Of a DNA stretch of 64,000 nt, positions 23,364 through 64,000 are shown one piece after another. Position numbers and translations under genes: made by a program. Below the pieces are notes generated by a model. It had not been told where the DNA came from and made no database searches. It was given only the letters and a program-made list of their open reading frames with translations. The stretch is taken from positions 1,893,662 to 1,957,661 of the forward strand of contig OZ251471.1 in assembly GCA_965242635.1 (NCBI GenBank), in the 5' to 3' direction. Position 1 is the stretch's first letter; each line of letters opens with the position of its first letter. The stretch comes from Bdellovibrionales bacterium (GTDB lineage: Bacteria; Bdellovibrionota; Bdellovibrionia; Bdellovibrionales; UBA1609).

Positions 23364-23681
23364 TCAGCTCTTTTTTTGGCTGTTTTTTAACTTCTGAATT
23401 TCCTCTTCAGACAAGCCTGTCACTGCAGAGATTAAAGAAAAATCCAGCTGTTTTTTCAGCATGTTTAAGGCCACAGCCTGCTTTTCTTTTTCCATGCCCT
23501 TTTCCATGCCCTGTCGCACGCCTTCTTTCCGGCCTTCATCGTAAACTTCGTCTTTAAGTTGAGCTTTGAGCTCGTCTTTGAGGGATCGCTGATCCCGCTC
23601 ATAGCGGTCAATCGACCACTCCCTCAACCTTGTCAAACGACTTGCAGGAACCCCATCAAACAAACCCACCGCTTTTGCCAT
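23364..23681 (-). CDS. Internal RpnS-like small protein (MAKAVG..., 105 aa)
   Basis: GGGGAGG-AT-ATG internal start (KGEDM) with an intact frame to the stop. Confidence 0.55.
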   Translation of the reverse strand: MAKAVGLFDGVPASRLTRLREWSIDRYERDQRSLKDELKAQLKDEVYDEGRKEGVRQGMEKGMEKEKQAVALNMLKKQLDFSLISAVTGLSEEEIQKLKNSQKKS

Positions 23682-23730
23682 ATCCTCCCCCTTTGTGGAC
23701 AGTAACCTTGCCTGTTCACGGCTCATTCGC

Positions 23731-23787
23731 CCTGCCCGCGAGTCGCGGGGGACAAAGTCGACGCGACTCTCACCTCTGATCGTGACT
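23731..23787 (-). repeat. Repeat D (hairpin-bearing coding repeat) within Rpn
   Basis: gtcacga...gtcgactttgtcccccgcgactcgcggg; related copies in tig, uppS and at 63109. Confidence 0.85.
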
Positions 23788-24076
23788 CTCAGCCTGAACC
23801 AAGAACCCTGATTTCCTAAATAGCACCATTGATTCCGCAAGTCAACCAATTCCTTTATGGACTTTTTCTGAAAACGGCTCAAATCCACAAACACCATCCG
23901 TAGATGGTCATTCAGCACAAAATGGGGATGTTCATCCGACCGAATGGCAAAAGAAGTCACAAAATCCCTCTCTTCTCCCTCGAACATCGGAAAAGTGGTG
24001 AATATCAGGGAATAAGTGGGGTGGAGCCGGCTATAGTCCTCCCCAGCCTTAAATCCTTTGGAGTGGAGCTGGGCAC

Positions 24077-24143
24077 TTTTTGGGGGGTTTTGGGACCAAA
24101 AAATTCGGAAATCCGAATTTTTACCGAATTTTTTGGCCGGTTT
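24077..24143 (-). repeat. Repeat B, palindromic box AAAAATTCGGAWWTCCGAATTTTT
   Basis: Other copies at 29159, 59733 and 62218. Confidence 0.9.
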
Positions 24144-24241
24144 GATGGTTTCTGACTTTATTTTTAATTTCTGGTGGACACAAGCTGATAGGCATGGTAT
24201 AGTGAGAAAAAAAAACAACATTAACCTTTAGGAGGTGGATT

Positions 24242-24595
24242 ATGAAAGTTCTTATAATTTTTCTTAGTCTGGTGTTTATGGGCTGTGTGACAGCCAACAC
24301 CAGAGACTTGTCCGCTATCAATCCCAAAGCAGAATCACTAAAAAGTGAACCTGTTTCAAACACCCCTTTTAAGTTGGCGGATGATGATGCCTGCACAACA
24401 TCTTGTTTGGAAGACGGCCATTCCCCCAGTGACTGTTCCGATGCTTGTTCTGATGACGCTTGGCGACGGCGACGGTCTTCTGGTGTGGAAAATAAAAAGC
24501 CTCTTATGTTGGCTGATGATTATGAAGATTGCATGGGAAAATGCACACAGCAAGCAAGCTCAAAAGCATGTCACAGTGTTTGCGAGAGAGAGTGA
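24242..24595 (+). CDS. Small lipoprotein with two CX3C-X8/9-CX3C modules
   Basis: Lipobox FMGC, AGGAGG SD, eight module Cys. Confidence 0.85.
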   Translation: MKVLIIFLSLVFMGCVTANTRDLSAINPKAESLKSEPVSNTPFKLADDDACTTSCLEDGHSPSDCSDACSDDAWRRRRSSGVENKKPLMLADDYEDCMGKCTQQASSKACHSVCERE

Positions 24596-24628
24596 GAAAA
24601 AAAAACATTAACCTTTTGGAGATGCATT

Positions 24629-24880
24629 ATGAAAGTTCTTATAATTTTTCTTAGTCTGGTGTTTATGGGCTGTGTGACCAGTGGGGTTAATAAAGACCGT
24701 GCTATAGCAAATGTATGTCATTTTAAAAATTATATAGACTTCATAAGCAAAGAAGGTGTCCATAATTGCTATTTGTCTAAGGCGGATTTGAGAAGGGCAG
24801 ATTTGCAAAATGCGGATTTGCGAAGTGCATATTTGTCTAAGGCGGATTTGCGAAGGGCGGGAGTATTTATCATAGTGTAA
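24629..24880 (+). CDS. Short pentapeptide-repeat lipoprotein (shortened paralogue of 61126-61680)
   Basis: First 17 aa identical to the previous ORF; KEGVHNC and ADLRR repeats. Confidence 0.8.
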   Translation: MKVLIIFLSLVFMGCVTSGVNKDRAIANVCHFKNYIDFISKEGVHNCYLSKADLRRADLQNADLRSAYLSKADLRRAGVFIIV

Positions 24881-29065: not shown

Positions 29066-29150
29066 TAAACCAAACTGGCACGAGGAGGCAGGCATCTTTT
29101 GAAAAAGGTGTTGCTTTTGGGTTGTTTTTCTCTTGGTTTATTATGCAGTA
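29066..29150 (+). repeat. Degenerate copy of MITE-like repeat A
   Basis: taaaccaaactgg...ttttgaaaaaggtgttgcttttggg. Confidence 0.7.
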
Positions 29151-29158
29151 TGTCATAC

Positions 29159-29230
29159 AAAAAAATTCGGATTTCCGAATTTTTTTCAGTCAAATTCGGA
29201 AATCCGAATTTAAAACCCCCTTTTTCGGCC
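29159..29230. promoter_or_regulatory. Two tandem TTCGG..CCGAA palindromes (repeat B type) upstream of the sigma54 activator gene
   Basis: aaaaattcggatttccgaattttt and aaattcggaaatccgaattt. Confidence 0.7.
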
Positions 29231-29322: not shown

Positions 29323-30642
29323 ATGTTGACACAAAAATTAAACATCAGGGGTCGGGGGCAAAGTTACGGCTTTTTGCGTTGGTCTGAGGGGGCACAGGTC
29401 AAGCAAAGAGAGATTGATTCTTTTATCAGTCTGGGCCGTGACAAAGACAACATGATCGTGTTGGAGGATGATTTTGCCTCCCGCCGGCACTGTCGGATCC
29501 AGAGGCAGGAGGACAGGGGTTTTGTTTTGCAGGACATGAACAGCCGGAATGGCACTTTTCTGAACGGCAATCGTGTTTACAAGGCTCTTTTGAAAAACAA
29601 TGATCGTATCCAGTTGGGGAAAAGAAGTTTCACCTTTTCTTTTGAGAGGTTTGACACCCACTGTAATATTCATACAGAGAGCAAAAACCTTGAATGGAGT
29701 CGTCAGCTCAAAAGTTTGCCGGATATGGCCAAAAGCAATATGCCGGTTTTGATCACCGGCCCTTCCGGCACAGGAAAGGAGATGCTGGCCAAGCTCATCC
29801 ATCGTCATTCCCACCGGAGTGAGGGGCCTATGGTGTCCATCAACTGCAGTGCTCTCTCCGAATCTCTGATTGAAAGTGAATTTTTTGGCCATGTCAAGGG
29901 GAGCTATACGGGTGCACTCAGCTCCCGGCAGGGGGCTTTTATGTCGGCCAAGGGGGGTTCTCTCTTTTTGGACGAAATTGGTGATCTGCCTTTAAACCTT
30001 CAGCCCAAGCTCCTGCGTGCTCTGGAGTATCAGGAGATAAAGCCTGTGGGTTCTGACAAAGTGACCAAAACGGATGTTCGCATTATAGCGGCCACGCATC
30101 AGGATTTAAAAGTCAAGGTGGCCCAAAAGGCTTTTCGGGCTGACTTGTATTTTCGTCTCTATGTGCTCAACCTTTCTCCTCCTTATTTAAAAGCCAGAAT
30201 GGAGGACTTCAGGGATCTGCTGGACTTTTTTTCCTGTGAATACAATATCTCCTTTTCTTCCAGGGCGATCAGGGCTTTGAGACGACATCCCTGGCCGGGC
30301 AATATCAGGGAATTAAAAAACACCGTGGCCCGGGCCAAGGCCCTTTTTTCCGGCACTGTAGTGCAGGAGGACCAGATCCAAAAATTGCTCTACCCGGCTT
30401 CGTCTTTGACAACAAATTCGTCTTTTACGACAAACAAACCCAGGAGCAGTAAGGAAATAACTTTTAAAGAGGCAAAAAACCTGCCTATGATAAAAAAAAT
30501 GGAAAAGGATCTGATCGTTAAAACTTTGGTGTTGTGCCGGGGCAACCAAAAAAACACAGCGGAGGAGTTGGGTATGGCCCCCAGCTCTTTGTCAGAGAGA
30601 ATGAGAAAGTATAAGCTTAAACCCACAGACTATAAAAAATAA
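29323..30642 (+). CDS. FHA-domain sigma54-dependent transcriptional activator
   Basis: FHA (GR, SRRH, SRNGT), GPSGTGKE, GSYTGA, FLDEIG, WPGNIREL and a C-terminal HTH; AGGAGG SD. Confidence 0.95.
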   Translation: MLTQKLNIRGRGQSYGFLRWSEGAQVKQREIDSFISLGRDKDNMIVLEDDFASRRHCRIQRQEDRGFVLQDMNSRNGTFLNGNRVYKALLKNNDRIQLGKRSFTFSFERFDTHCNIHTESKNLEWSRQLKSLPDMAKSNMPVLITGPSGTGKEMLAKLIHRHSHRSEGPMVSINCSALSESLIESEFFGHVKGSYTGALSSRQGAFMSAKGGSLFLDEIGDLPLNLQPKLLRALEYQEIKPVGSDKVTKTDVRIIAATHQDLKVKVAQKAFRADLYFRLYVLNLSPPYLKARMEDFRDLLDFFSCEYNISFSSRAIRALRRHPWPGNIRELKNTVARAKALFSGTVVQEDQIQKLLYPASSLTTNSSFTTNKPRSSKEITFKEAKNLPMIKKMEKDLIVKTLVLCRGNQKNTAEELGMAPSSLSERMRKYKLKPTDYKK

Positions 30643-30813: not shown

Positions 30814-32514
30814 ATGCCGGCTTTAAATTTTAAAGGAAAGCACTCTGTTTATTCTTATCATTTGGGAGTCCCCTTTTGCCCAATGAAAATGGACGGGAAA
30901 AAGTCACTTCCCAAACAATCAAAGCCCTCTTTGGACGATAATTTGATTGTTCATGGGGATAACCTTCTGGCTTTAAAAGCCCTTTTGCCAAGATATGCCG
31001 GAAAGATAAAATGTGTCTATATTGACCCGCCTTACAACACAGGAAATGAAAATTGGAAATACAATGACAATGTAAACAGCCCCATGATAACAGAATGGCT
31101 GGGCAAAGTGGTTGGTGTGGATGATTTGGAGAAGCACGACAAATGGCTTTGCATGATGTGGCCCAGGTTGCAGTTGCTTAAGGAACTGCTTGCTGAAGAC
31201 GGAGTGATTTTTATCAGCATTGATGACAATGAAGTGGCCAATTTAAAACATGTCATGGACGAGATTTTTGGCGAAGAGAATTATATTGCTCAAATCACAG
31301 CTCAGACCAATCCCCGTGGTCGCTCATTGCGACAGGATATAGCTCGAACTCATGAATATATCCTGGTTTTTGCCAAAAACATGGAAAGGGTCCGGCTCAA
31401 AGAGATTCCAAAAAAGCAGGAAACTTTGTCTGAATACAAGAAAAAAGACAGTAAGGGCACTTATCGGCTTATGAGATTGATGAACGGAGCTGTCCAATTT
31501 TTTAATCGTAAGACACGGCCCAACCTGTTTTTTCCAATTTATGTCAATCCCAGGACCGGGCAAGCGTCTTTATCCCGCTCAAAAGAATACTGTATGGAGA
31601 TCTTTCCCATATCATCTTCTGGTGAAGAAGGTTGCTGGACTTGGAGCAGGAATAAAATAAAAGAAAATCCATCCATGCTTTTTGGAGAGAAAAAAAGAAC
31701 GGGCGTATGGCGTGTCTACAGAAAAGATTATCTTCCGGAAAACGGCCATGCCACCACAAAAGAGAGATCTATCTGGCTTGATAAAAGCATAAATCATGAA
31801 GTGGGGAAAGAGATATTATCAACTTTGTTTCAAAAAAATGTTTTTGACTATCCAAAATCACCGGAGCTGATAAAAAAATGTATTCAGCTTATCTCAGATA
31901 AAGAGACTGTCATTTTGGATTCTTTTGCCGGCTCGGGGACAACAGCCCATGCTGTTCTTGATTTGAATAAAGAGGATGGAGGTCATCGCAAATTTATTCT
32001 TGTGGAATGTGAAAATTATGCCGACAAAATCACAGCAGAGCGGGTTCGCCGGGTGATTAAAGGGGCCCCCAAAGCCAAAAAGGAAATTTTGAAAAACGGC
32101 ATGGACGGTTCTTTCACTTACCTGACTCTTGGGAAAGCAATGAGTGAAGAAAATCTGATAAAAGGCAAATCTCTCCCCGACTATCAAACTCTTTCCAGCT
32201 ATGTCTATTATATAGCCACAGGAAAAACTTTAAGAAAGGCACTTGAAAATGAAGACTTTTATATTGGAAAATCAGACAAAGACACTGCTTTTTTTGTTAT
32301 TTACAAACCCGATATTCATTTTTTAAGAAGCAAAAAATCTGCTCTGAATTTGGACAGAAAAGAAAAGATCCAAAAAGTCATGAGCCAAAAAAACTGCGAA
32401 AAAGCGGTGGTTTTTGCCTCTGCACATTATTTTGATTCAACAAGTGAGTTGGCAGAAGAAGGCATTATATTTTGTCAACTGCCTTTTGCCATTTACAGGG
32501 TGGCGGGGGTTTAA
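30814..32514 (+). CDS. mod: Type III RM DNA methyltransferase
   Basis: HGDNL, YIDPPYN, FDYPK and DSFAGSGTT motifs. Confidence 0.94.
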   Translation: MPALNFKGKHSVYSYHLGVPFCPMKMDGKKSLPKQSKPSLDDNLIVHGDNLLALKALLPRYAGKIKCVYIDPPYNTGNENWKYNDNVNSPMITEWLGKVVGVDDLEKHDKWLCMMWPRLQLLKELLAEDGVIFISIDDNEVANLKHVMDEIFGEENYIAQITAQTNPRGRSLRQDIARTHEYILVFAKNMERVRLKEIPKKQETLSEYKKKDSKGTYRLMRLMNGAVQFFNRKTRPNLFFPIYVNPRTGQASLSRSKEYCMEIFPISSSGEEGCWTWSRNKIKENPSMLFGEKKRTGVWRVYRKDYLPENGHATTKERSIWLDKSINHEVGKEILSTLFQKNVFDYPKSPELIKKCIQLISDKETVILDSFAGSGTTAHAVLDLNKEDGGHRKFILVECENYADKITAERVRRVIKGAPKAKKEILKNGMDGSFTYLTLGKAMSEENLIKGKSLPDYQTLSSYVYYIATGKTLRKALENEDFYIGKSDKDTAFFVIYKPDIHFLRSKKSALNLDRKEKIQKVMSQKNCEKAVVFASAHYFDSTSELAEEGIIFCQLPFAIYRVAGV

Positions 32515-35111
32515 TGGAACTCAAAGAATTTCAGGAGCTTTGTCTGATCAGGCTGAGTGATTATCTTGGTCTGTTAAAAGAACAATATTTGGACGAAAAA
32601 CTCGAAGTGGAATTTTATAAAAGCCGGGGCAAGGACAGAGAGATCGAAAAATATTGCCAAAAAACCTGGGATGAACTCCATAAAGAGGGCAAACTTCCCC
32701 AGTCCAAAAATCAAAAAGGGCAAATTCAGGTTCCTCCCCACTGCAATAAAACAGATGGCCTTGGTCACCCCATCCCCAATATATGTTTAAAAGTCCCCAC
32801 AGGAGGAGGGAAAACCCTGATAGCTGTTTCCTCCATTGAAAAAATAAACTTTGATTATTTTAAAAAAAACACAGGGCTGGTTTTGTGGATTGTCCCCACA
32901 AAAGCCATATACAGACAAACACTTATAAACTTTCAGGACAAATCACATCCCTATCGGCGAGTGTTGGAAAGAGCCTCCGCGGGAAAAGTCAAAATTATTG
33001 AAAAAACCTCTGCTTTTTCATTTCAAGACCTTGATGAACATCTTTGTGTTATGCTGTTGATGTTACCCTCAGCCAACAGAGAGACAAAAGAATCCTTAAA
33101 AATGTTTAAAGATTCAGGACGGTTTATTTCTTTTTTTCCGTCTCCTGAGAACAGCCAGGCCAATGAAAACCTCTTGTCTCAAATCAGTAATTTGGATAAA
33201 TACAGTGGCAAAAAATCTATAGGAGGTGGGAAGTCTCTTTTTGTCAAACACAGCCTGGGCAATGCCATAAGGATAGCCCGTCCGATTGTGGTCATGGATG
33301 AGGGGCACAGGGCCTATTCTGAATTGGCCAGGAAGACCATTGCCAATCTCAATCCAAAATTTATTCTGGAACTTTCTGCCACCCCCAACACAAAAGAACA
33401 CTTGAGCAATATCCTTGTCAGTGTATCGGGCATAAAATTAAAAGAAGAGGAAATGATAAAGCTCCCCATCAATGTCACCAATACCAAAAAAGGGGATTGG
33501 AAAAAAACTTTATGCCAGGCTTGTGAGAAACTGAAAGAATTGGAAAGAGACAGCAAAACATATCAAAGAAAAAGCAAAAAATATATCCGCCCCATTATGC
33601 TGATTCAAGTGGAGCGGACAGGAACAGATCAGGAAAATGATCCACGGTTTATTCATGCCAAAGATGTCCGGGCTTATTTGATCGAGCAGGGGATTCCTGA
33701 ATCCGCCATAAAAATCAAAGTGGCGGAAAAAGATGAATTAAAAGATGAAAGCCTTTTAAGCGACACCTCACAAGTGCAATTTATCATTACAAAACAAGCC
33801 CTTCAGGAGGGTTGGGACTGCCCATTTGCCTACATATTGACCATTTTATCCAAAACCAAATCCAGGCTGGCCCTGACCCAGCTGATTGGCCGAATTTTAA
33901 GGCAACCAAACGCCCAAAGAACTTCAATAAACTCTTTAAACGAAAGTTATGTTTTTTGTTACAATAAAACTGTTGAAGAAGTTGTCTCCCATATCAGAAA
34001 AGGACTGCAAAAAGAGGGCATGGACGATCTGATTGATTATGTCCAGACAGAAGAAAGCCATCTTAAAACAGTAACAGCAAAAAGAAGTCCAAAATTCAAA
34101 AGAACAAAAATTTTTCTTCCAAGAGTGTTATGCAAAACGAAAACAGGATCATGGAGAAACATGATTTATTCTCATGATATTTTGCAGGAACTGGATTTTT
34201 CAAAAATATCTTATTCAAAAAAAAACAAATGGACTCCTGAAAACATAGACTCCCTTAAAGTCAATGCCATAAAAGTGGATATAGAGGATAAAGCAGGTTC
34301 ATTGCAGGTGCCTTATACAAGTCAAAACAAGCAGGAACACATTATGAGTATGGATTACTCATTTATAATAAAAAGGCTTTGCCATTTCATACCCAACCCC
34401 TGGGAGGCCGGAAGGATTTTTGATGAAACTGTTGCCTCCTTAAAAGCCAAAAAAATATCAGATAAAAAAATTTATTTAAACAGGGCTTACCTTTTGGAAT
34501 CCATGGAGGAGGATATACGAAACCAGACAGAACAGCTGGCAGAAAAAGTTTTTACAGAGAAATTAAAAAACAGCTCCCTTTGTTTTAAAATCTTTAAATA
34601 CCAAATCGATATAAATTGGAAAATGGACCCCAAATTGGATTTTATTGTTTCCACCGGGGACAAATTTTTAAGAAAAGAGGATGACAGGGATTTTCAGCTG
34701 TCTCTTTTTGACACCACTTATCAATCCCATTACAATAAATTGGAAAAGCAGGTGGCCTGGTACCTGGATGAGCAATCAGCAGTCAAGTGGTGGCACAGAA
34801 TGGTTGCAAAACAGGACTATCATCTCCAAGGCTGGCAAAAAAGAAAAGTTTATCCGGATTTTTTGGCTTTTATCAGTCCTGACAATAAAATAAAAAAGCT
34901 TTCTGTTTTGGAAACCAAAGGTGAACATTTGAAAGGAAATGAAGACACAGAATACAAAAAAAAGCTCTTTGAAGTTTTGGAAAAACATGCCACAAATGAG
35001 TCGGTGAGTGTGGGCGATATGGAAGTCATTTCAGAACAGGAACAAAAAATGGTTTTTAAAATTCTTATGGAAAAAACATGGAAAGAGGATTTGAGCGGGT
35101 TAATGAAGTAA
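32514..35111 (+). CDS. res: Type III RM restriction subunit (SF2 helicase plus PD-(D/E)XK)
   Basis: PTGGGKT, DEGH, SATP, EGWDCP, QLIGR and YPDFL...ETKG motifs; TAATG overlap with mod. Confidence 0.92.
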   Translation: MELKEFQELCLIRLSDYLGLLKEQYLDEKLEVEFYKSRGKDREIEKYCQKTWDELHKEGKLPQSKNQKGQIQVPPHCNKTDGLGHPIPNICLKVPTGGGKTLIAVSSIEKINFDYFKKNTGLVLWIVPTKAIYRQTLINFQDKSHPYRRVLERASAGKVKIIEKTSAFSFQDLDEHLCVMLLMLPSANRETKESLKMFKDSGRFISFFPSPENSQANENLLSQISNLDKYSGKKSIGGGKSLFVKHSLGNAIRIARPIVVMDEGHRAYSELARKTIANLNPKFILELSATPNTKEHLSNILVSVSGIKLKEEEMIKLPINVTNTKKGDWKKTLCQACEKLKELERDSKTYQRKSKKYIRPIMLIQVERTGTDQENDPRFIHAKDVRAYLIEQGIPESAIKIKVAEKDELKDESLLSDTSQVQFIITKQALQEGWDCPFAYILTILSKTKSRLALTQLIGRILRQPNAQRTSINSLNESYVFCYNKTVEEVVSHIRKGLQKEGMDDLIDYVQTEESHLKTVTAKRSPKFKRTKIFLPRVLCKTKTGSWRNMIYSHDILQELDFSKISYSKKNKWTPENIDSLKVNAIKVDIEDKAGSLQVPYTSQNKQEHIMSMDYSFIIKRLCHFIPNPWEAGRIFDETVASLKAKKISDKKIYLNRAYLLESMEEDIRNQTEQLAEKVFTEKLKNSSLCFKIFKYQIDINWKMDPKLDFIVSTGDKFLRKEDDRDFQLSLFDTTYQSHYNKLEKQVAWYLDEQSAVKWWHRMVAKQDYHLQGWQKRKVYPDFLAFISPDNKIKKLSVLETKGEHLKGNEDTEYKKKLFEVLEKHATNESVSVGDMEVISEQEQKMVFKILMEKTWKEDLSGLMK

Positions 35112-52686: not shown

Positions 52687-53900
52687 TTTTTAATCTCTGG
52701 GAGAGCTTTTTTTATCAGATGATTTATTGTTTTTGCCTTTAGCAGGGACCTTTTCAGATTTTGATAAATGTCCTCATCCTTGATTTGGTTTATGTTGTTT
52801 TGTTTCATGTAGAGCTGGATTTCACGGGGAGACACAGTAAAGTCAAGCTTTTTGATCAGGTCAGTCAGAAGATAATGAGAATGCACGGCAAAACGTGCCT
52901 CTTTTTCAAAAACAAGGTGCTCTTTCTGAATGGCCTTTTTTATATCCTCTTCTTTTATGCCATTTTGCTTCATAATTTCGATCACTTCGGATTTCAATAA
53001 CTGTTTTTGTTTGTCCACTATTTTTTCCGGCAAAAGGGGCAGAGGGTATTTTTTGGTCAACTGTGTTAATATCTCATCCTCCATTTTCTCCTGCTGTTTT
53101 TGTCTCTTTTTATTCTCATGGGCCAAGCGGATAAACATTTTCATATCCTTCAGGCTTTTGTAGCCACAGATTTTTGCAAAATTGTCATCTATGGTTTTGT
53201 CTGCTTCAGTTTTGTCTGTTTCAGTTTTGTCTGTTTCAGTTTTGTCTGTTTCAGTTTTGTCCACATTGGCCAGGTTCACAGTGACTTTTTTCACATTGGC
53301 TATGTGTTGCCATCTTTTCATGCTCTCCTCTATTTCTTTTTCCTCCACTTTTATGGGAGGGGGGGGGGAAAGAGAGGGTGTGAAGTTTTTGTCCACATCC
53401 ACTTCGGGCTGGATTTCCACTGTAAAATAAAAGGTCCAGGCTTTGTTTTCCTCTATGGGGGATTTAAATTGCATTTCAGGCTGAAAAGCAGGGCTGAGGC
53501 CAGTGGTCTTTATGGCCTTGGGGTAAAACTCCTGTATAAGATCCAACAGGCTTTCCTGTTTCACTTTCTCCTGATAATGCTGGCGGATATACGACATGGG
53601 GGCTTTGCCTTTTCTGTATCCATGGATATGGGCTTGTTTTTGCATTTTTTTGTAATTTTTATCAAAAGCTTTTCTCACTTCTTCAAGAGAGACATGAATA
53701 TCCACTTGTCTCTCAAGGTCTTTGAAATTTTTTACCTCATAATTCACCCCCGTGTCGGGGGGGACAAAATCGCCACGGCTGTCCTCTTCGTTCGTGACTT
53801 TAGGTTTTTGATTGTGACCCTCTGCTGTTGTCTTCATTTCTCCTGTGTCGGGGGGGACAAAGTCGCCACGGCTGTCGTCTCCGTTTAATGTTATCTTCAT
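52683..53900 (-). CDS. tig: Trigger factor lacking the FKBP domain, with N-terminal repeat D copies
   Basis: GYRKGKAP ribosome-binding motif, DDNFAK and a helical C-domain. Confidence 0.88.
   Translation of the reverse strand: MKITLNGDDSRGDFVPPDTGEMKTTAEGHNQKPKVTNEEDSRGDFVPPDTGVNYEVKNFKDLERQVDIHVSLEEVRKAFDKNYKKMQKQAHIHGYRKGKAPMSYIRQHYQEKVKQESLLDLIQEFYPKAIKTTGLSPAFQPEMQFKSPIEENKAWTFYFTVEIQPEVDVDKNFTPSLSPPPPIKVEEKEIEESMKRWQHIANVKKVTVNLANVDKTETDKTETDKTETDKTEADKTIDDNFAKICGYKSLKDMKMFIRLAHENKKRQKQQEKMEDEILTQLTKKYPLPLLPEKIVDKQKQLLKSEVIEIMKQNGIKEEDIKKAIQKEHLVFEKEARFAVHSHYLLTDLIKKLDFTVSPREIQLYMKQNNINQIKDEDIYQNLKRSLLKAKTINHLIKKALPEIKK
53746..53885 (-). repeat. Two copies of repeat D at the 5' end of tig
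   Basis: Encode NGDDSRGDFVPPDTG and VTNEEDSRGDFVPPDTG. Confidence 0.92.
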
Positions 53901-55449: not shown

Positions 55450-56304
55450 TCAGGCAGGGCTGTTTTTTTCCAGCCCCCTGTTGTTTTTGAAGGGCAGAGC
55501 ACCAAACCGGCGGGGTGTTTGTTCATAATGCTCCAGGGCCCGGGTCAGCTCCTTTTCGTCAAAGTCCGGCCACAGTGTCTGGCTGATGTAAATTTCTGAA
55601 TAAGCCGAACCCCACAGGTAAAAATTGGAAAGCCGGCTCACCCCCCCTGTTCGTATAATCATGTCCGGTGGAGGAAACAAAGAGGAAGGGAGGTGAGTGG
55701 CAAAATTTTCCTCGTTTATGTCTTCTGGTTTTATATCCCCTGTTTTAATTTTTTGGGCCAAAGACCTCACTGCCTGAACAATCTCACTTCTGCCTCCATA
55801 ATTTACGGCCACAATCAAATTCAGGCCCTGATGATTTTGTGTGTCCTCCATCATTTTTTGAAAGAGTTTGCTTGTCGGATTGTTGAGTTTTGCCAGATCC
55901 CCCAAAACATGCAGACGCACCTGATATTTTTGAAAATCCTTTTTATAGTGGGTGAGGGCCCGGCCCATAAGTTTCATGATAAGAGATACCTCTTTTGCAG
56001 GTCTTTTCCAGTTTTCTGTGCTGAAAGCAAACACAGTCAGATAAGGGATACCGAGGTCAGAGCAATTTTTAATCATTCGGTAGAGGGCCCGGACACCCTG
56101 AAAATGACCAAAAAAGCGGGGCTGTCCTTTTTGAGTGGCCCAACGCCCATTGCCATCCATAATGACAGCCAAATGCCTCACCGCCGAGTCGGCGGAGACA
56201 AAGTCGACGCGGCTGTCGTCTCCGTTCGTGACCCCCGTGTCGGGGGGGGCAAAGTTTTTTTTAGACTTTTTTAAGTTCACTGATTTTTTTGTTTGAGAGA
56301 GCAT
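55450..56304 (-). CDS. uppS: Undecaprenyl diphosphate synthase (start uncertain)
   Basis: IMDGNGRW, AFSTENWKR, NYGGR, IRTGG and RLSNF motifs. Confidence 0.96.
   Translation of the reverse strand: MLSQTKKSVNLKKSKKNFAPPDTGVTNGDDSRVDFVSADSAVRHLAVIMDGNGRWATQKGQPRFFGHFQGVRALYRMIKNCSDLGIPYLTVFAFSTENWKRPAKEVSLIMKLMGRALTHYKKDFQKYQVRLHVLGDLAKLNNPTSKLFQKMMEDTQNHQGLNLIVAVNYGGRSEIVQAVRSLAQKIKTGDIKPEDINEENFATHLPSSLFPPPDMIIRTGGVSRLSNFYLWGSAYSEIYISQTLWPDFDEKELTRALEHYEQTPRRFGALPFKNNRGLEKNSPA
56181..56254 (-). repeat. About 1.5 tandem copies of repeat D (51-bp period) at the 5' end of uppS
   Basis: Encodes FAPPDTGVTNGDDSRVDFVSADSA. Confidence 0.9.
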
Positions 56305-56851: not shown

Positions 56852-57559
56852 TTATCCGCTGTGGATAAAAGTGCCCAGTTTCTCCCCCTTGAGGAGTTTT
56901 AAAATATTGCCTTTTTCCCTTAAATTAAAAATAATAAGAGGCATTTTGTTGTCCATGCAAAGGGAAATGGCCGTGGAATCCATAACCTTGATATTCTGAT
57001 TTAACACATCAATGTATTTTAATTTTGTGTATTTTTTGGCCTTGCTGTTTTTTTCCGGATCCATATCATAAACCCCATCCACTTTGGTGGCTTTCAGCAG
57101 GATTTCGGCATTCATTTCCATGGCCCTGAGGGCGGAGGCCGTGTCGGTTGTAAAGTAAGGGTTGCCTGTGCCGGCAGAAAAAATAACAATACGGTTTTTT
57201 TGTAAGTGACGCAAAGCTTTCCGGCGGATATAAGGCTCAGCCACCTGGGAAATGGGAAAAGCGGTTTGCACCCGTGTTTCCACCCCTTTTTGTTCCAGGG
57301 CGTTTTGCAGGGCCAGGGCGTTGATACAGGTGGCCAGCATGCCCATATAATCTGAACTGGCCCGATCCATCCCTTTGGATTCTTCAGACATGCCACGAAA
57401 TATATTGCCCCCGCCCACCACCAAAGCGATTTGCGTGCCCCCTTTTCGTGCCTCGGCCAGCTCCTCTGCCACACGGGACACAGTGGGGGGATGGATGCCA
57501 AAACTTTTGTCTCCGCATAAAATCTCTCCACTGATTTTGATCAAAATTCTTTTATACAT
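56852..57559 (-). CDS. pyrH: UMP kinase
   Basis: [13 protein letters not shown] and [10 protein letters not shown] motifs. Confidence 0.97.
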
Positions 57560-59454: not shown

Positions 59455-59732
59455 GGGTTTTTCCCTCAAGGCTCAAATTTCATTATTTCCAGCAAAAAGC
59501 CCATTATGTCAAAAAAAAAAGAGCCTGCCAACAAAAAAAAAGGTTCTTCCCGGAAATTTATGGGTAAAAAAGAGCAATTAATGATTTTTCCTATAGTGGT
59601 TGCAATGTGAATGAAAAGGGCAATCTGGGCATTGTGGATTGCCTGCTTTGCCTGCCTTGCCCCCCTCAACCACACCACCACCATCACCAAAAGCCACAAA
59701 GTGGCTCGCAATTGGTCACACGGCGAACTGGC

Positions 59733-59840
59733 AAACCGGCCAAAAAATTCGGTAAAAATTCGGTTTTCCGAATTTTTTTGTCTCAAAACCCCCCAAAAAG
59801 CCTGTTTTGAGCCGATCCCATTTTGCACCTCCTTTTTTAA
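59733..59840 (+). repeat. Repeat B, interrupted by IS200 and resuming at 60412-60470
   Basis: Colinear with 62218-62385. Confidence 0.9.
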
Positions 59841-60411
59841 TCTTCACGGGTTTAATTCCCCGTGGCTTGCCACGCTCCTAATAAGGCGTTAGCCTTACCG
59901 TATGGGGAAGTATATTTATAAAAGTCACAATGTGTCATTTTTGCTTTATCACTTAGTATGTCCGATAAAGTATAGAAAGCTTGTGTTGACTGATAAAGTT
60001 TCAGGGGAGTTAAAGTTGATATGTAAAGAGATTAGTCAGCGTTATGAGATGGAGTTTATAGAAATAGGTTTGGATGGGGATCATGTGCATTTTTTGATTC
60101 AGTCTGTGCCGACGTATAGTCCTACACGGATTTGTCGGATAGTGAAGAGTTTAACAGCTCGTGAGTTATTTAGGAGGTGTCCGGAGGTGAAGAAGTTTTT
60201 GTGGGGGGGTGAGTTTTGGACGAGGGGATATTTTATAAGTACGGTGGGTCATCATGGTGATGAGAAGAAGATCAGTGATTATGTGAAGAATCAAGGGAAT
60301 AAGTCAGGTTATAAGAAGATTCACAGTCAACAATTGCGATTGTTTTGAGGATACAGATACTGGCGATAGCCAGAAGTGATACCCCGTGGCTTGCCACGGG
60401 GAGGCTTCATT
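59841..60411 (+). mobile_element. IS200-family element (tnpA only)
   Basis: Subterminal hairpins ccccgtggcttgccacg(ggg) at both ends; boundaries defined by the empty site near 62326; no TSD. Confidence 0.92.
59902..60348 (+). CDS. tnpA: IS200/IS605 Y1 transposase
   Basis: YHLVCPIKYR, DHVH (HUH), FWTRGY and YVKNQ motifs. Confidence 0.96.
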   Translation: MGKYIYKSHNVSFLLYHLVCPIKYRKLVLTDKVSGELKLICKEISQRYEMEFIEIGLDGDHVHFLIQSVPTYSPTRICRIVKSLTARELFRRCPEVKKFLWGGEFWTRGYFISTVGHHGDEKKISDYVKNQGNKSGYKKIHSQQLRLF

Positions 60412-60452
60412 TGAAATATCGTGCTGGTCCTTTTGTGCACTGTGCCATCACT

Positions 60453-60470
60453 TTGGCCCGGATTTTGCAT
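60453..60470 (+). promoter_or_regulatory. sigma54 (-24/-12) promoter candidate
   Basis: TTGGCCCGGATTTTGCAT, GG-N10-GC spacing. Confidence 0.65.
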
Positions 60471-60822
60471 TTGGGGGAAATTTTACCAAAAATACCTTTG
60501 TCCATTCGGAAAGATATGCCAAGCTATGGCTTGAGGGTGATAGACACCCATGATTCGAAGGTGGATTTGGCCATTCAGGACCGGGAGTTTAAGAGTCGGG
60601 GTTTTTTGAATGCCCTGAAGAGGTCCTGGTCTTTGAGGGCGGATGAGGGGGTATTGAACGAGGCTCTTTCTTTATTTGACAACTGGCCTGGTGACAGAGC
60701 TGATTTGTTGTTAAATGTGGGGAATTACCTTTGGTCCGTGGTGCCGGGGATGACCAAGGAGCTATGGAACAAAGTGGAAAGAACGGCAGTTAGTCATGGT
60801 ATATTTACAATAAGGAGGGTAT
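60471..60822 (+). pseudogene. 3' remnant of a second Rpn-type (YhgA-like) gene
   Basis: Helical coding remnant leading into a typical Rpn C-terminus; N-terminus absent. Confidence 0.6.
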
Positions 60823-60999
60823 ATGGATATCAGAGAACACATAAGAGAGGAAGCCATGCAAGAGGGCATGCAGAAGGGCATGCAACAGGAGCGACAACAA
60901 GTTGTGTCAAATATGCTGAACAGTGGTTTGGACACTTCCCTTATCTGCAAAGTGACAGGCCTTTCTGAAGAGGAAATCCAAAAGCTGAAAAACGGCTAA
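60823..60999 (+). CDS. 58-aa RpnS-like small protein (MDIREHIREEAMQEG...VTGLSEEEIQKLKNG)
   Basis: Strong TAAGGAGG SD; intact ORF, below the ORF-track cutoff. Confidence 0.7.
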   Translation: MDIREHIREEAMQEGMQKGMQQERQQVVSNMLNSGLDTSLICKVTGLSEEEIQKLKNG

Positions 61000-61125
61000 G
61001 GCTTTAACTGGCTGGCAAATAGTCACGAATCAACAGTCAACCCGTGTCCAGTTTTTTTTAGGCAGAAAACATGAGAGGACCAGCATGCGGTCGGGAAATT
61101 CATCGATTCAAAACATCCCGTAAAG

Positions 61126-61680
61126 CTATTCCACCACAACAAAGCCCCACAAGCCTTTTGCCTTTAAATAAATAGCTTGTTCTTGTATGACTTTTGCTCC
61201 TTTCAAATACACTCCTTTCAAATTCGCCTTATACAAAACTGCCCTTCGCAAATTCGCCCCTTGCAAATTCGCCCCTCGCAAATCCGCCTCTTGCAAATCC
61301 GCCCTTCGCAAGTCCACATCTTTCAAATTTGCCTCTCGTAAATCCGCCTTATACAAAACCGCCCTTCGCAAGTCCGCATCTTTCAAATCTGCCTCTCGTA
61401 AATCCGCCTTATACAAAACCGCCCTTCGCAAGTCCGCATCTTGCAAATCTGCCTCTCGTAAATCCGCCTTATACAAAACCGCCCTTCGCAAATTCACCCT
61501 TCGCAAATTCACCCTTCGCAAATCTGCCCCTTGTAAATTGCAATTATGGACACCTTCTTTATTTATGAAGTCTCTATAATTCTCAATATTACAGTCTTCA
61601 TTTGCCACAGCACGGGCTTTAACCCCACTGGCCACAAAGGACACAACCACAAAACTTAAGAGCAAAATAAGAGCTTTCAT
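61126..61680 (-). CDS. Secreted pentapeptide-repeat protein
   Basis: Signal peptide; A(D/N)Lxx repeats encoded by 45-bp tandem DNA repeats. Confidence 0.92.
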   Translation of the reverse strand: MKALILLLSFVVVSFVASGVKARAVANEDCNIENYRDFINKEGVHNCNLQGADLRRVNLRRVNLRRAVLYKADLREADLQDADLRRAVLYKADLREADLKDADLRRAVLYKADLREANLKDVDLRRADLQEADLRGANLQGANLRRAVLYKANLKGVYLKGAKVIQEQAIYLKAKGLWGFVVVE

Positions 61681-61824
61681 AATACACCTCCAAAATGGTT
61701 TTTATCTTCTCTCACTATATCATATCGGCTGGCCACCTGGAAACCTTAAATTCCAAAAGGTTATTTACATGCATTCCTGCAACTCTTTACCCAAAAAGTT
61801 TTTTGCAGGGTTAATTTTATTAAA

Positions 61825-62121
61825 TTAGTGGCAATGCACACGACCTTTATAATCACCGTGACATCCATACTCATCCACACCACCATCATGAGCAACCTTA
61901 ATGAGACTTTCGATTTTAGAGAGCTTAAGACAGCTAACAGAGCAGAATAACAAAATCCCGCCGTCTTTTTGACAGTCAGACAAACAACCTTCAAACTGAT
62001 CGTTTGCTGAAACGATCGCTTTTTCCGGGCTGGGATTGACACCGGATACATCTCTGGAATTAGTGTTGGCTGTCACACAGCCCACAAACACCAGACTAAG
62101 AAAAATTATAAAAGCTTTCAT
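61825..62121 (-). CDS. Small lipoprotein with a CX3C-X9-CX3C module and a YHYH-like module
   Basis: Lipobox FVGC; leader nearly identical to the 24242 ORF; HDGGVDEYGCH...HCH. Confidence 0.85.
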   Translation of the reverse strand: MKAFIIFLSLVFVGCVTANTNSRDVSGVNPSPEKAIVSANDQFEGCLSDCQKDGGILLFCSVSCLKLSKIESLIKVAHDGGVDEYGCHGDYKGRVHCH

Positions 62122-62217
62122 AATACACCTCCTTTAAAGGTTAATGTTGTTTTTCCTCACTATATCATGCCTATCGGCTGGTGTCCACCAGAAATTAAAA
62201 ATAAAGTCAGAAACCAT

Positions 62218-62385
62218 CAAACCGGCCAAAAAATTCGGTAAAAATTCGGATTTCCGAATTTTTTGGCCCCAAAACCCCCCAAAAAGCCTGTTTTGAGCTG
62301 ATCCCATTTTGCACCTCCTTTTTTAATGAAATATCGTGCTGGCCCTTTTATGCACTGTGCCATCACTTTGGCCCGGATTTTGCAT
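62218..62385 (+). promoter_or_regulatory. Intact repeat B: palindromic box plus sigma54 promoter candidate (62368-62385)
   Basis: Palindrome about 120 bp upstream of TGGCCCGGATTTTGCA. Confidence 0.7.
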
Positions 62386-62470
62386 GGGGATAAGCAAAGG
62401 CAGGGTTTTCCTGCCAAAAAAATTAACAGAGGCAGGACTTTCCTGCCAAAAACATATAAAGGAGCTTGTT

Positions 62471-63590
62471 ATGACACAACAACCGGAAAAGCGTCACTTT
62501 TTGGATTTAACCAAAGACGGACCTTTTAAATTCTTCTTCTCCCGCAGTAAACCCTCCCTGCTCTCTTTGCTCAGAACCTTCCTGCCCCTGCCAGAAAAAA
62601 AAGAAGTCCAAAATGTGGAAATCGTCTCAGATAAAAAAGAAACAAGCCTCCCTCAACCACAAAGCCTGACCTACCAGGACAGTGCTCTTTACCCCTACTC
62701 CATAGAAGGAAAACAAAGCCTCCTGGACTTGAATGTTCAGCTCAACACAGGTGAAAAAGTGGATGTCGAAATGCAGGCCACAAATCAGGCCAATTTTTCA
62801 GCAAGATCGGTATTTTACTGGGCCAGGCTCCATGCCACAGGATTAAACAGAGGTGAGGACTATGACCGGCTTCACCCCACTTATTCCCTGATATTTACGA
62901 CTTTTCCTCTGCTGAGGGGAGAGAACCTGGACCTGGTTAGTCCTTTTTCCATCCGGTTGGATAAACCGCCCCATGTGGCCCTGAATCGTCAGCTACAGAT
63001 GGTGTTTGTGGATTTAAGCCGTTTTCAGAAAAAGTCCATAGAGGAATTGGTTGACTTGCGGGATCAATGGTGTTATTTAGGAAATCAAGGTTCTTGGTTC
63101 AGGCTGAGAGTCACGATCAGAGGTGAAAGTCGCGTCGACTTTGTCCCCCGCAACAAGGCAGAGCTGACTCGCGGGCAGGGCGAATGAGCCGTGAACAGGC
63201 AAGGTTACTGTCCACAAAGGGGGAGGATATGGCAAAAGCGGTGGGTTTGTTTGACAATGCGTCTGCTCGTGATTTGGATGGACAGTAACCATTTATTTGA
63301 GGCGAATGGAGTCGTTTGACGGAGGAGCGGGAGCACTGGGATCGTATATCCATGCAGGCAGAAGCCCGCTTTATGAAAAAAGCTCTGAAAGAAGGCAGAG
63401 CTGAAGGCATGCAACAAGGCCGGGCTGAAGGCATGCAGACTCTTGACGATGGCTTAAGTATACAAATAAAACTGTCTGATATACAAAAAAAGAAAGAACA
63501 GCCAGTGGGTTGGACACTTCCCTTATCTGCAAAGTGACAGGCTTGCCTGAAGAAGAAATCAACAAGCTGAAAAATGGTGCTTGCTAATCC
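62471..63590 (+). pseudogene. Rpn-family PD-(D/E)XK nuclease/putative transposase disrupted by several short insertions
   Basis: DGPFKFFF, LDL...DVEMQ, RSVFYWAR; frameshift at 63152; in-frame stop near 63286; C-terminal VTGLPEEEINKLKNG in another frame. Confidence 0.9.
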
Positions 63591-63816: not shown

Positions 63817-64000
63817 ATGAGAAATCTCCAATGTTTGAAATGCCATAAAAGCATACAAAACAAGCCTGTTTACGGGCTTCATGCCCGCTGTTTTGTGGAT
63901 TGGTTTCAACTGTCTGAATACAGCCCATTCAGTCACCTGGATCCTAAAAAATCGGCCAGCACTGACAGCTCAGCCGACAACTTAATCAAATCCAAAGACA
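63817..64000 (+). CDS. 5' part of a probable HipA-like protein (runs off the window)
   Basis: MRNLQCLKC...YGLHARCFVDWF resembles the CxxC..HxxC N-terminus of some HipA kinases; kinase domain not visible. Confidence 0.5.
   Translation, partial: MRNLQCLKCHKSIQNKPVYGLHARCFVDWFQLSEYSPFSHLDPKKSASTDSSADNLIKSKD

Follow-up and report, generated by a model that had tools for sequence, protein, structure and literature searches.

A putative portable sigma-54 promoter cassette facing Rpn-family nuclease genes in a small genome related to Bdellovibrionales

The promoter block and its neighbours

The host is a small uncultivated bacterium of the predatory type, a Bdellovibrionales relative with a genome of 2.0 Mb. 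The window, by which we mean the whole stretch of 64,000 nucleotides that was analysed, holds several Rpn-family genes or remnants, each faced by a copy of one and the same upstream block (Table 1). The intact copy (62218-62385) is one of 18 full copies aligned genome-wide. Sigma-54 promoters have the form GG-N10-GC and need activators bound about 80-150 bp upstream. At 62369 the motif is canonical, fitting the context TGGCAC-N5-TTGCW, and its GG-N10-GC spacing is correct, a start of transcription being predicted 12 nt past the C, at 62395; furthermore, the Rpn block carries an inverted repeat about 124 nt ahead of the sigma-54 motif, a distance within the range for an enhancer (UAS). The motif TGGCCCGGATTTTGCA occurs at 60454 and 62369 of the window, and the palindrome, with one mismatch at most, at five places (24104, 29166, 29195, 59759 and 62245), against 0.07 expected. 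Hairpins of the GGCAGG-N5-CCTGCC type with an N5 loop are confined to the region downstream of the 16-mer, the first one always 30 nt from its start. All the sequence features put forward in the original prediction, the sigma-54 motif included, were present, and the block does face Rpn sequence at each of its three copies in the window (62471-63187; after 60470; 23364-24074). These copies are real, but what had been described as a feature with three occurrences is in fact a genome-wide family.

Table 1. Location of the features discussed, in positions of the window
Feature	Position	Strand	Details
Rpn (PDDEXK_2) remnant faced by truncated block	23364..24074	-	
Truncated inverted block copy	24076..24144	-	palindrome 24104-24117; promoter half deleted
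Second cassette beside truncated block	24242..24880	+	lipoprotein-like 24242-24595, pentapeptide 24629-24880
Two palindromes	29166-29179, 29195-29208		spacing 29 nt; FHA-activator start codon 115-157 nt downstream
FHA + Sigma54_activat + HTH_8 activator gene	29323..30642	+	439 aa; contact motif GSYTGA
Left half of second block copy	59732..59841	+	95% identity; palindrome variant TTCGGTTTTCCGAA at 59759
Insertion splitting second block copy	59842..60411	+	570 nt
IS200-like Y1 transposase gene in that insertion	59902-60348		PF01797, E 1.5e-34
Right half of split copy	60412..60470	+	97%; sigma-54 motif 60454-60469
Transposase_31-type Rpn C-terminal remnant	60471..60999	+	genome 1954132-1954657, query residues 139-325, 50%
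Secreted pentapeptide-repeat protein gene	61126..61680	-	PF00805, E 4e-41
Divergent small lipoprotein-like gene	61825..62121	-	no Pfam match
Sigma-70-like promoter of the lipoprotein-like gene	62159-62187		
Intact block (putative promoter)	62218..62385	+	half-site, palindrome, A/T-tract middle, TTGCA element, sigma-54 motif
Extra half-site AAATTCGG	62231-62238		inside intact block
Palindrome TTCGGATTTCCGAA	62245..62258		centre ~143 nt upstream of predicted start 62395
Sigma-54-type -24/-12 element TGGCCCGGATTTTGCA	62369..62384	+	GG 62370-71, GC 62382-83
Two 5'-leader hairpins GGCAGG-N5-CCTGCC	62399-62415, 62431-62447	+	
Rpn-family gene (PDDEXK_2 PF12784 / TIGR01784)	62471..63187	+	truncated at 238 aa

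Many of the faced genes are damaged. The gene behind the intact block is broken by an insertion of about 97 nt (63079-63175), with out-of-frame fragments extending to about 63590. At the truncated copy a deletion has removed, besides the promoter half, about 117 codons from the start of the Rpn gene, and this very junction recurs at genome position 934369. The Rpn family as a whole counts 57 loci in 2 Mb, with many paralogues and remnants. Its members match PF04754, PF12784 or TIGR01784 above the curated cut-off, those of the Transposase_31 type passing the Pfam cut-off while falling just under that of TIGR01784, and their C-terminal tails are variable, with short repeats such as EGMQQGRAEGMQ.

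On its other side the block was said to be accompanied by divergent lipoprotein and pentapeptide genes. This holds at both copies concerned, which are inverted with respect to one another (24076-24217 corresponds to 62145-62286 at 96% identity, and 24230-24300 to 62063-62133 at 94%). Yet the secreted cassettes are a separate family, with more than 25 loci and a sigma-70-like promoter of their own. Nine junctions between cassette and block share a single junction point and are therefore copies of one event; on the evidence of these junctions, the cassettes are linked to the block by duplication. The HipA-like kinase candidate at 63817 has fared in a similarly mixed way: the ORF itself has no Pfam match, but the next two carry HipA_C (2.6e-9) and Couple_hipA (the HipA N-terminal domain) with HTH_3, respectively, which makes it a split locus or else a system of three parts. 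Any link from HipA to the FHA activator is speculative. Three Hanks-type kinases are encoded elsewhere in the genome, and a Hanks-type kinase gene lies 38 nt after one of the Rpn genes that the cassette is predicted to drive.

A block copied before unrelated genes

A whole-genome scan for the palindrome TTCGGAWWTCCGAA returned 27 exact matches and 34 with at most one mismatch, grouped in 31 loci. In accord with the association originally proposed, 25 of these loci face an Rpn-family gene or remnant, and 19 have the canonical motif about 124 nt downstream, one of them split by the IS200 insertion; the start-to-start distance is 123-127 nt at 17 loci and 115/135 nt at one. Exact copies of TGGCMCGGATTTTGCA number 19 in the genome; 15 face Rpn sequence, 11 of these being intact ORFs. 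The remaining 12 palindrome loci of this genome have no -24/-12 motif, so that the palindrome is not constantly accompanied by a sigma-54 promoter. Conversely, 13 of the 27 near-full-length Rpn genes have neither element, and a sigma-70-like TTGACAAATGGATAC cassette serves five of them.

The portability of the module could be assessed on 55 pairs drawn from 11 genes. Identity of the 169-nt block is 0.87 between genes of the same subfamily, 0.86 between subfamilies and 0.85 between different Pfam families, while that of the coding DNA goes from 0.92 to 0.59 and 0.52 in the same three classes, and that of the proteins down to 0.20. Because the block stays about 85% identical in front of proteins sharing as little as 20%, it is, as judged from these alignments, a portable promoter cassette, which bears out the original proposal. 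Near-identical DNA upstream of very distant genes is what is expected of a mobile or reused promoter, and this one has been copied before about 20 genes.

In every copy the left edge of the repeat coincides exactly with a hairpin, following at least three different left flanks, and in several copies the block breaks off, at a point that varies, and continues directly into internal Rpn sequence. These facts would fit a structural role, in which the palindrome and a long alternative hairpin (GGCCAAAAAATTCGG...CCGAATTTTTTGGCC), folding at -23 kcal/mol (z = -4.6), serve as an insulator or as a hot spot for recombination or insertion, with no transcription factor involved. The cassette would then have spread via the hairpin, perhaps through the Rpn nucleases themselves, Rpn proteins having been reported to promote RecA-independent recombination (PMC5350276). 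We hold this to be quite improbable. The palindrome is conserved before the single-copy comM and activator genes in most of the genus while the adjacent spacers have diverged; it is not a repeat in G001 and G007, where the only exact copy of the genome sits upstream of the activator gene; and the block shows neither a second terminal repeat nor a target duplication. The latter two absences, together with a right side that runs into the gene, also led us to reject a MITE or an IS end. The long hairpin is not an intrinsic terminator either, as no T-run follows it.

Is the -24/-12 element a promoter at all? Since the whole block is 85-95% identical, conservation of the 16-mer within it proves little, and remnants abound among the faced genes; the match might have been kept simply as part of a young repeat, the Rpn genes being silent or otherwise read. 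Several observations made outside the block make this very improbable. Two genes, dprA and one of 242 aa, have the identical 16-mer 12-15 nt ahead of them; the surroundings show no homology to the block, and neither motif has a palindrome within 220 nt. When dprA was read in 13 other genomes, 12 of the orthologues proved to retain a -24/-12 motif (that of G005 is interrupted). In the sister species G004, an Rpn-family gene follows 17 of the 21 exact copies of TGGCACGGATTTTGCA; both Pfam families are represented, and the upstream contexts are of at least three unrelated kinds. Motifs in two species thus provide independent support for the predicted control of Rpn genes by sigma-54. The genome encodes one rpoN (Sigma54_DBD) and five strong Sigma54_activat genes, and we infer that the motif fires.

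The FHA activator and the reading of the palindrome

FHA domains bind phosphothreonine. The activator gene of the window has the architecture of an FHA-type enhancer-binding protein (PF00498, 3.8e-21; PF00158, 2.4e-63; PF02954, 1e-9). Its contact motif reads GSYTGA where GAFTGA is expected, as it does in all 14 orthologues aligned; HrpS, which is active, reads GAYTGA (PMC3105312), and by analogy GSYTGA would be compatible with sigma-54 activity. The two palindromes announced upstream of this gene are indeed there, at 29166 and 29195, and the arrangement is conserved genus-wide: an orthologue exists in 15 of 15 genomes of the genus, preceded by the palindrome in 11 (no palindrome was found within 1 kb of the gene in G004, G003, G008 and G010), and the palindrome stands upstream of comM in 12. 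The activator gene is also the only regulator gene adjoining a palindrome in this genome.

From this distribution the palindrome is, we consider, a genus-wide cis element. Its variant is species-specific yet uniform across targets: the centre of exact sites measures 2 nt in all 27 here and 1 nt in all 15 of the sister species G009, and G004 has GTGTCGG at comM and Rpn genes alike. In G004 the recognition helix of the activator reads LYDK, as against LSER, LCER or LSEK in those genomes read whose sites are of the ATTCGGA type. This co-variation follows phylogeny, and any co-evolving factor would fit; that the FHA activator binds the palindrome is an inference from these combined clues.

Outside the Rpn block of this genome, palindrome and sigma-54 motif never occur together. 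Four further palindrome promoters, termed class 2 and all non-Rpn (secretin, Flp-like pilin, comM and the activator gene itself), have TT or CC in place of the -24 GG. The most serious competing explanation is one that we rate as less probable than our own but well worth considering. The cassette would be sigma-54-driven, but the palindrome would be the operator of another factor, or of the FHA protein in a role unconnected with sigma-54. This factor would control a second promoter located 49 nt past the palindrome (the conserved TTGCA element, followed by TATATA in sister species), and a different activator, such as that of dprA and secretin, would act on the sigma-54 promoter. All three class-2 promoters with a single palindrome share the palindrome-N49-TTGCA spacing of the Rpn block; before the activator gene, the AAAAC-to-TTGCA spacing is kept at 38-39 nt in six species although the intervening sequence has diverged. 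In 10 genomes comM starts 13-16 nt past the TTGCA element, and a TATATT-like hexamer stands between the two. G009 and G004 read TTGCATATATA(T)AAA at that element, and in G009, where 17 of 18 palindrome modules face Rpn genes or remnants, none of the 18 has a -24/-12 motif within 400 nt. Finally, dprA and secretin are predicted to be sigma-54-driven across the genus without the palindrome. Against this, the hexamer after TTGCA is poor here (CCTCCT) and a scan of the plus strand of the block for sigma-70-like sites was negative; no regulator gene other than that of the FHA activator adjoins a palindrome; and the distance of about 120 nt from palindrome to promoter, with A/T tracts between, is a typical enhancer geometry, kept both in the present genome (G000) and in G004.

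The latter species is instructive on both counts. Its palindrome GTGTCGGATACCGACAC lies about 118 nt upstream of the promoter, in the same architecture as in G000, and 12 of its 15 palindrome sites precede Rpn genes; four of these 12 have an intact -24/-12 element, the -12 GC being lost in the other eight, and the palindrome is absent from most of the sigma-54/Rpn promoters of G004. Copies of a repeat do not count as independent cases, and the middle part of the G004 module is itself homologous, so that the coupling between palindrome and promoter has effectively a single evolutionary origin.

All in all, the explanation that we favour, while granting it slightly less than an even chance, is that of a portable sigma-54 promoter cassette for Rpn genes, with the palindrome as enhancer and the FHA activator as its likeliest binder. 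The cassette would place Rpn nuclease genes, of the toxin-antitoxin or antiphage type, under sigma-54. The sigma-54 RNA polymerase would bind TGGCCCGGATTTTGCA and start near 62395, producing a transcript whose leader opens with one to three GGCAGG-N5-CCTGCC hairpins; the enhancer would be the palindrome some 143 nt upstream, followed by the stretch of A-tracts and T-tracts. The activator of 29323-30642 would have further binding sites in the palindrome pair preceding its own gene and in the palindromes before comM, the secretin gene and the Flp-like pilin gene. The cassette may be gated by phosphothreonine signalling. The data further suggest that, in this poorly known predatory lineage, dprA and the secretin gene are tied to sigma-54, and comM via the palindrome. 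A broader scenario, which we consider unlikely, is a sigma-54 'foreign-DNA' programme in which the FHA-gated activator, set by Ser/Thr phosphorylation, would simultaneously fire a dozen or more Rpn nucleases along with comM, dprA, secretin and Flp-like pilin, through a single co-evolving palindrome and a promoter cassette hopping between genes; the kinase encoded by the Hanks-type gene following an Rpn gene would feed back on the FHA domain and so complete the circuit.

Relation to known systems

The block resembles the UAS promoters of the NtrC/glnAp2 and PilR/pilA type, with GG-N10-GC, an inverted repeat about 120 nt upstream of -24 and A/T tracts between, as well as an activator that has a Fis-type HTH and whose own gene is likewise preceded by such sites. 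It differs from them in that one cassette stands before about 20 genes, that the palindrome, a putative binding site, is also found at promoters without the -24 GG, and that the sensor domain is FHA rather than a receiver. FHA-domain enhancer-binding proteins were reportedly described in Myxococcus xanthus by Jelsbak and colleagues in 2005. The present activator shares their combination of FHA, AAA+ and HTH, an architecture that implies control by Ser/Thr kinases; by contrast with the Myxococcus set, there is here one orthologue in each of 15 small-genome Bdellovibrionales genomes, with GSYTGA instead of GAFTGA, which seems to target nuclease, comM and pilus genes, not developmental ones. In Pasteurellaceae and Enterobacteriaceae, a shared palindrome, the CRP-S site, marks the competence regulon. 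Here too a shared palindrome or promoter type precedes comM, dprA and pilus/secretin genes, but the motif is another one, sigma-54 is involved, nuclease toxin genes are included, and competence of this lineage is putative.

The Rpn genes themselves, with their Pfam/TIGR01784 matches, variable C-terminal tails and many paralogues, are akin to the Rpn (YhgA-like) toxin-antitoxin and antiphage nucleases (PMC10400941, PMC5350276). The paper that defines Rpn as a toxin-antitoxin defence states that the reasons for differential Rpn expression are unknown (PMC10400941), and the parts of it consulted contain nothing on control of the kind suggested here by the sigma-54 motif and enhancer, in a genome with 57 loci; nor did a literature search turn up any paper that deals with 'recombination-promoting nuclease' together with 'sigma-54'. 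In two species, many genes of a very large Rpn family now prove to be preceded by a sigma-54 motif, accompanied by candidates for the enhancer and for an activator sensing a phospho-signal; the way in which Rpn toxin nucleases are switched on thereby becomes testable via reporters and binding assays. The last parallel is with the putative mobile promoters, in which a highly similar promoter is found upstream of mutually dissimilar genes (PMC3575422). The cassette shares this property and departs from the promoters described there in associating a sigma-54 promoter, a presumed enhancer and a structured leader with a single functional class of genes, which would make it an exceptionally clear example in nature of an entire regulatory unit moved among unrelated genes.

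The block in the window and across the genome

The host genome is a single contig of 1,998,056 bp (44.7% G+C). In the window the palindrome TTCGGAWWTCCGAA occurs five times with at most one mismatch, against 0.07 expected, and the sigma-54 16-mer TGGCCCGGATTTTGCA twice. Both are parts of a promoter cassette (the block) made of the palindrome, an A/T-tract middle, a TTGCA element and the 16-mer with its -24/-12 elements; one of its copies is split by 570 nt of inserted DNA carrying an IS200-type Y1 transposase gene. The intact block faces a gene of the Rpn nuclease family (PF12784 and TIGR01784 matches), which is shortened by an insertion of about 97 nt that intact paralogues do not have, while the Rpn sequences faced by the other two copies are remnants. 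Two palindromes also lie 115-157 nt upstream of the start of the FHA activator gene, which encodes FHA, Sigma54_activat and HTH_8 domains; the nearest named relatives of its product come from metagenome-assembled 'Bdellovibrionales bacterium' genomes (70% and 49% identity). Every feature described in the original prediction, namely the block, the 16-mer, three copies facing Rpn sequence and the palindromes before the activator gene, is present, and the observation is confirmed as described. The block corresponds to no RNA family on record: searched against Rfam at gathering thresholds, the whole window gave no match.

Coordinates of the features discussed (W, window; G, whole contig)
Feature	Position	Remark
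Intact block	W 62218-62385	
Second block copy, split	W 59732-59841 + 60412-60470	repeat of 62218-62385
Inverted block copy	W 24076-24217	without promoter half
Rpn gene	W 62471-63187	
Insert of ~97 nt in this Rpn gene	W 63079-63175	
Overlapping stop and start (ATGA)	W 63184-63187	
Pieces related to the insert core	W 23737-23780, 53749-53792, 53842-53885, 56183-56226	
FHA activator gene	W 29323-30642	
DNA methylase and helicase-nuclease genes	W 30814-35111	
TGGCACGGGGCAGGCA motif, example	W ~29076-29094	
Periodic array of pentapeptide-repeat gene	W 61140-61588	
Sigma-70-like promoter of secreted cassette	W 62159-62187	TGGACA-17-TATAGT
Split HipA-like locus (L161)	W 63817 to ~1.5 kb past window end	three ORFs: 114 aa, no match; 193 aa, HipA_C; 209 aa, HipA N-terminal domain + HTH_3
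Leader repeats	G 57200-57380, 560830-560970	units of ~22-23 nt
Second Rpn promoter cassette	G 220054, 504354, 579236, 856852, 1523447	
Cassette-driven Rpn gene	G 402286-403413	
Hanks-type Ser/Thr kinase gene	G 403451 onward	PF00069; same strand as preceding Rpn gene

The genome-wide scan proposed with the original prediction bears out the association. The palindrome has 27 exact copies, or 34 if one mismatch is allowed, at 31 loci, all belonging to one repeat family. At 18 loci the 16-mer follows 115-135 nt downstream (mostly 123-127 nt); the IS-split copy brings these to 19 of the 31, all facing an Rpn-family gene or remnant. At six more loci a truncated block copy runs directly into the interior or the C-terminal part of an Rpn sequence, so that in total 25 of the 31 loci face Rpn sequence. 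The exact 16-mer TGGCMCGGATTTTGCA occurs 19 times genome-wide. Of these copies, 15 face Rpn sequence, which is an intact ORF in 11 cases, a broken gene in one and a remnant in three. Among the remaining four, one precedes dprA, one a 242-aa gene whose family is unknown, one a ClpB-like gene (there within a fragment of truncated block), and one has no ORF behind it.

Rpn-like loci number 57, an unusually large expansion for a 2.0-Mb genome, with both PF12784 (PDDEXK_2) and PF04754 (Transposase_31) types. Among the 27 that are near full length, the 16-mer lies before 13 and a degenerate AGGAAC version before one; the other 13 lack both elements, and five of these last have in common another, sigma-70-like cassette, TTGACAAATGGATAC. 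The second shared promoter cassette, GTTGACAAATGGATACAAACA...CCAAGGAGG, stands at five loci before another set of Transposase_31-type Rpn genes, and the palindrome and the sigma-54 motif are both absent there. The insert that splits the Rpn gene of the window is structured, with core GTCGCGTCGACTTTGTCCCCCGC, and is present in seven Rpn loci genome-wide; after it, the first ORF ends at a TGA overlapping a new ATG.

How far the block travels with its genes can be read from 11 intact genes (55 pairs; block length 169 nt). Within a subfamily, identity is 0.87 for the block, 0.92 for coding DNA and 0.89 for protein; between subfamilies of the same Pfam family the values are 0.86, 0.59 and 0.42, and between Pfam families (PF12784 versus PF04754) 0.85, 0.52 and 0.20. 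Because it stays 85% identical before essentially unalignable genes, the block has moved, or has been homogenised, independently of the genes behind it. It is followed by a leader with one to three GGCAGG-N5-CCTGCC hairpins, the first always 30 nt from the start of the 16-mer; no hairpin with that loop type occurs anywhere but downstream of the 16-mer. Between promoter and Rpn start codon, the leaders also hold variable short tandem repeats, with units GGCCACATAGTGGCTCGCAATGG in this genome and (ACAA)n and (CAGA)n in the sister species G009 (loci L132-L144), and differ in length among copies, which could modulate expression. The palindrome was considered as an intrinsic terminator and rejected: its long hairpin has no T-run behind it, and the scan lists nothing but the hairpins of the leader on the opposite strand.

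Probable sigma-54 control of the Rpn genes

Conservation of the 16-mer within the block proves little in a repeat this young, and evidence from elsewhere carries more weight. The genome encodes one rpoN and five true activators. At dprA the identical 16-mer stands 15 nt before the start codon, and at the 242-aa gene 12 nt; neither place shows block homology around it; a -24/-12 motif is at the same place in 12 of the 13 dprA orthologues read in other genomes of the genus, and ten other genomes have one at their secretin gene orthologues. In the sister species G004, of 21 exact copies of TGGCACGGATTTTGCA, 17 stand before Rpn-family genes (10 Transposase_31 and 7 PDDEXK_2), with upstream contexts of at least three unrelated kinds. 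On these combined grounds, we infer that Rpn genes are probably under sigma-54 control in two species. Regulation is left open by the paper that defined Rpn proteins as toxin-antitoxin defence systems (PMC10400941), and a literature search for a link between Rpn and sigma-54 found no paper.

In most genomes of the genus, the canonical motifs of dprA and secretin orthologues lie just 12-20 nt before start codons, implying leaderless or nearly leaderless sigma-54 transcripts. The secretin promoter of this genome has apparently lost, to the palindrome module, the -24 half that orthologues keep. A motif present about 45 times genome-wide, TGGCACGGGGCAGGCA(GAACCTGCC), mimics the GG-N10-GC spacing but is part of another dispersed repeat.

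The palindrome and its candidate binder

Comparison across 15 genomes shows the palindrome to be a cis element conserved in the genus, more than a repeat. Orthologues of the FHA activator are found in all 15; upstream of the gene, eight genomes have a pair of sites with a spacing of 29-31 nt and three have a single site; no palindrome was read within 1 kb of the gene in G004, G003, G008 and G010. Palindromes or repeated half-sites lie upstream of comM in 12 of 15, and in G001 and G007 the sole exact palindrome of the genome is the site before the activator gene. The variant is species-specific yet uniform across targets: the centre is 2 nt in 27 of 27 exact sites here versus 1 nt in 15 of 15 in G009, and the form of G004 (GTGTCGGATACCGACAC) is GTGTCGGATACCGA at 14 exact sites and one with a mismatch, preceding comM and 12 Rpn genes. 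The comM palindrome of G008, GGACAC-N5-GTGTCC, was discarded as a regulon marker, being unique in that genome and therefore devoid of regulon information.

The recognition helix of the activator reads LSER, LCER or LSEK with ATTCGGA-type sites in the genomes read, and LYDK in G004, and its gene is the sole regulator gene adjoining a palindrome in this genome. Taken with the upstream sites and the species-uniform variants, this makes the FHA activator the best candidate binder, and a plausible one; the co-variation of palindrome and activator follows phylogeny and would fit any co-evolving factor. In all 14 orthologues aligned, the sigma-54 contact motif is GSYTGA, not GAFTGA; a tyrosine variant of GAFTGA is reported to be active in HrpS (PMC3105312). 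Upstream of the activator gene and facing away from it, a sigma-54 motif (TGGCACGGATTTTGCAT in G004, TGGAATCGATTTTGCAT in G009) precedes an ORF with no Pfam match in G004, its G009 counterpart being read in DNA only; this ORF may be a conserved direct target of the activator. Directly after the activator gene come an N6_N4_Mtase DNA methylase gene and a ResIII helicase-nuclease gene, which look like a type III restriction-modification pair.

The full model, with the palindrome as enhancer, the FHA activator as its binder and a sigma-54 promoter downstream, is the likeliest reading, at slightly less than even odds; that the palindrome serves another promoter or factor is somewhat less likely. 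Palindrome and sigma-54 motif come together only inside the Rpn cassette, a coupling of effectively one origin, since the G004 cassette is homologous in its middle part. Four 'class 2' palindrome promoters of this genome (palindrome ... CCTCCATT-N13-TTGCA), before the secretin gene, a Flp-like pilin gene (a weak Pfam match, below cut-off), comM and the FHA activator gene, have no GG at -24. Of the 18 palindrome modules in G009, 17 point at an Rpn gene or remnant (four confirmed by Pfam, the remainder judged from N-terminal sequence) and none of the 18 has a -24/-12 motif within 400 nt, and in G004 the -12 GC is lost in 8 of 12 palindrome-linked Rpn promoters. In the Rpn block and in the three single-palindrome class 2 promoters, a conserved TTGCA follows the palindrome at a distance of exactly 49 nt; in G009 and G004, TATATA comes after it. 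This element may be part of a second promoter. As the -12 of a second sigma-54 promoter it finds no GG 10 nt upstream in the four class 2 promoters or the Rpn block of this genome; at comM in other species, the -12 spacing fits only in G004 and G013, and TC replaces GC in G014, G011 and G002. It is this evidence against an enhancer role that sets the grades of the full model and of its rival.

Neighbouring genes and standing of the model

The original prediction drew two neighbours into the module. Adjacency of the secreted cassettes (divergent lipoprotein-like and pentapeptide-repeat genes) is real, and is no evidence of co-regulation: they form a separate family of more than 25 loci, with their own sigma-70-like promoter, the palindrome lying about 100 nt upstream of its expected start. 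Cassette and block are joined at an identical junction in nine loci, which hence descend from one event, and the link to block regulation is weak. The pentapeptide-repeat gene of the window contains a 15-nt periodic DNA array of 19 register-shifted copies. As to the HipA-like kinase, the ORF at 63817 has no Pfam match, and the two ORFs after it divide the HipA domains between them; this link is weak as well. A better lead to a phospho-signal is one of the three Hanks-type kinases of the genome, because its gene begins 38 nt downstream of an Rpn gene driven by the cassette.

The interpretation thus has support in part: the portable cassette and sigma-54 control of Rpn genes have good support. 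A sigma-54 enhancer-promoter unit and a reused promoter are both of known kinds; here a variant of them is applied to the Rpn gene family.
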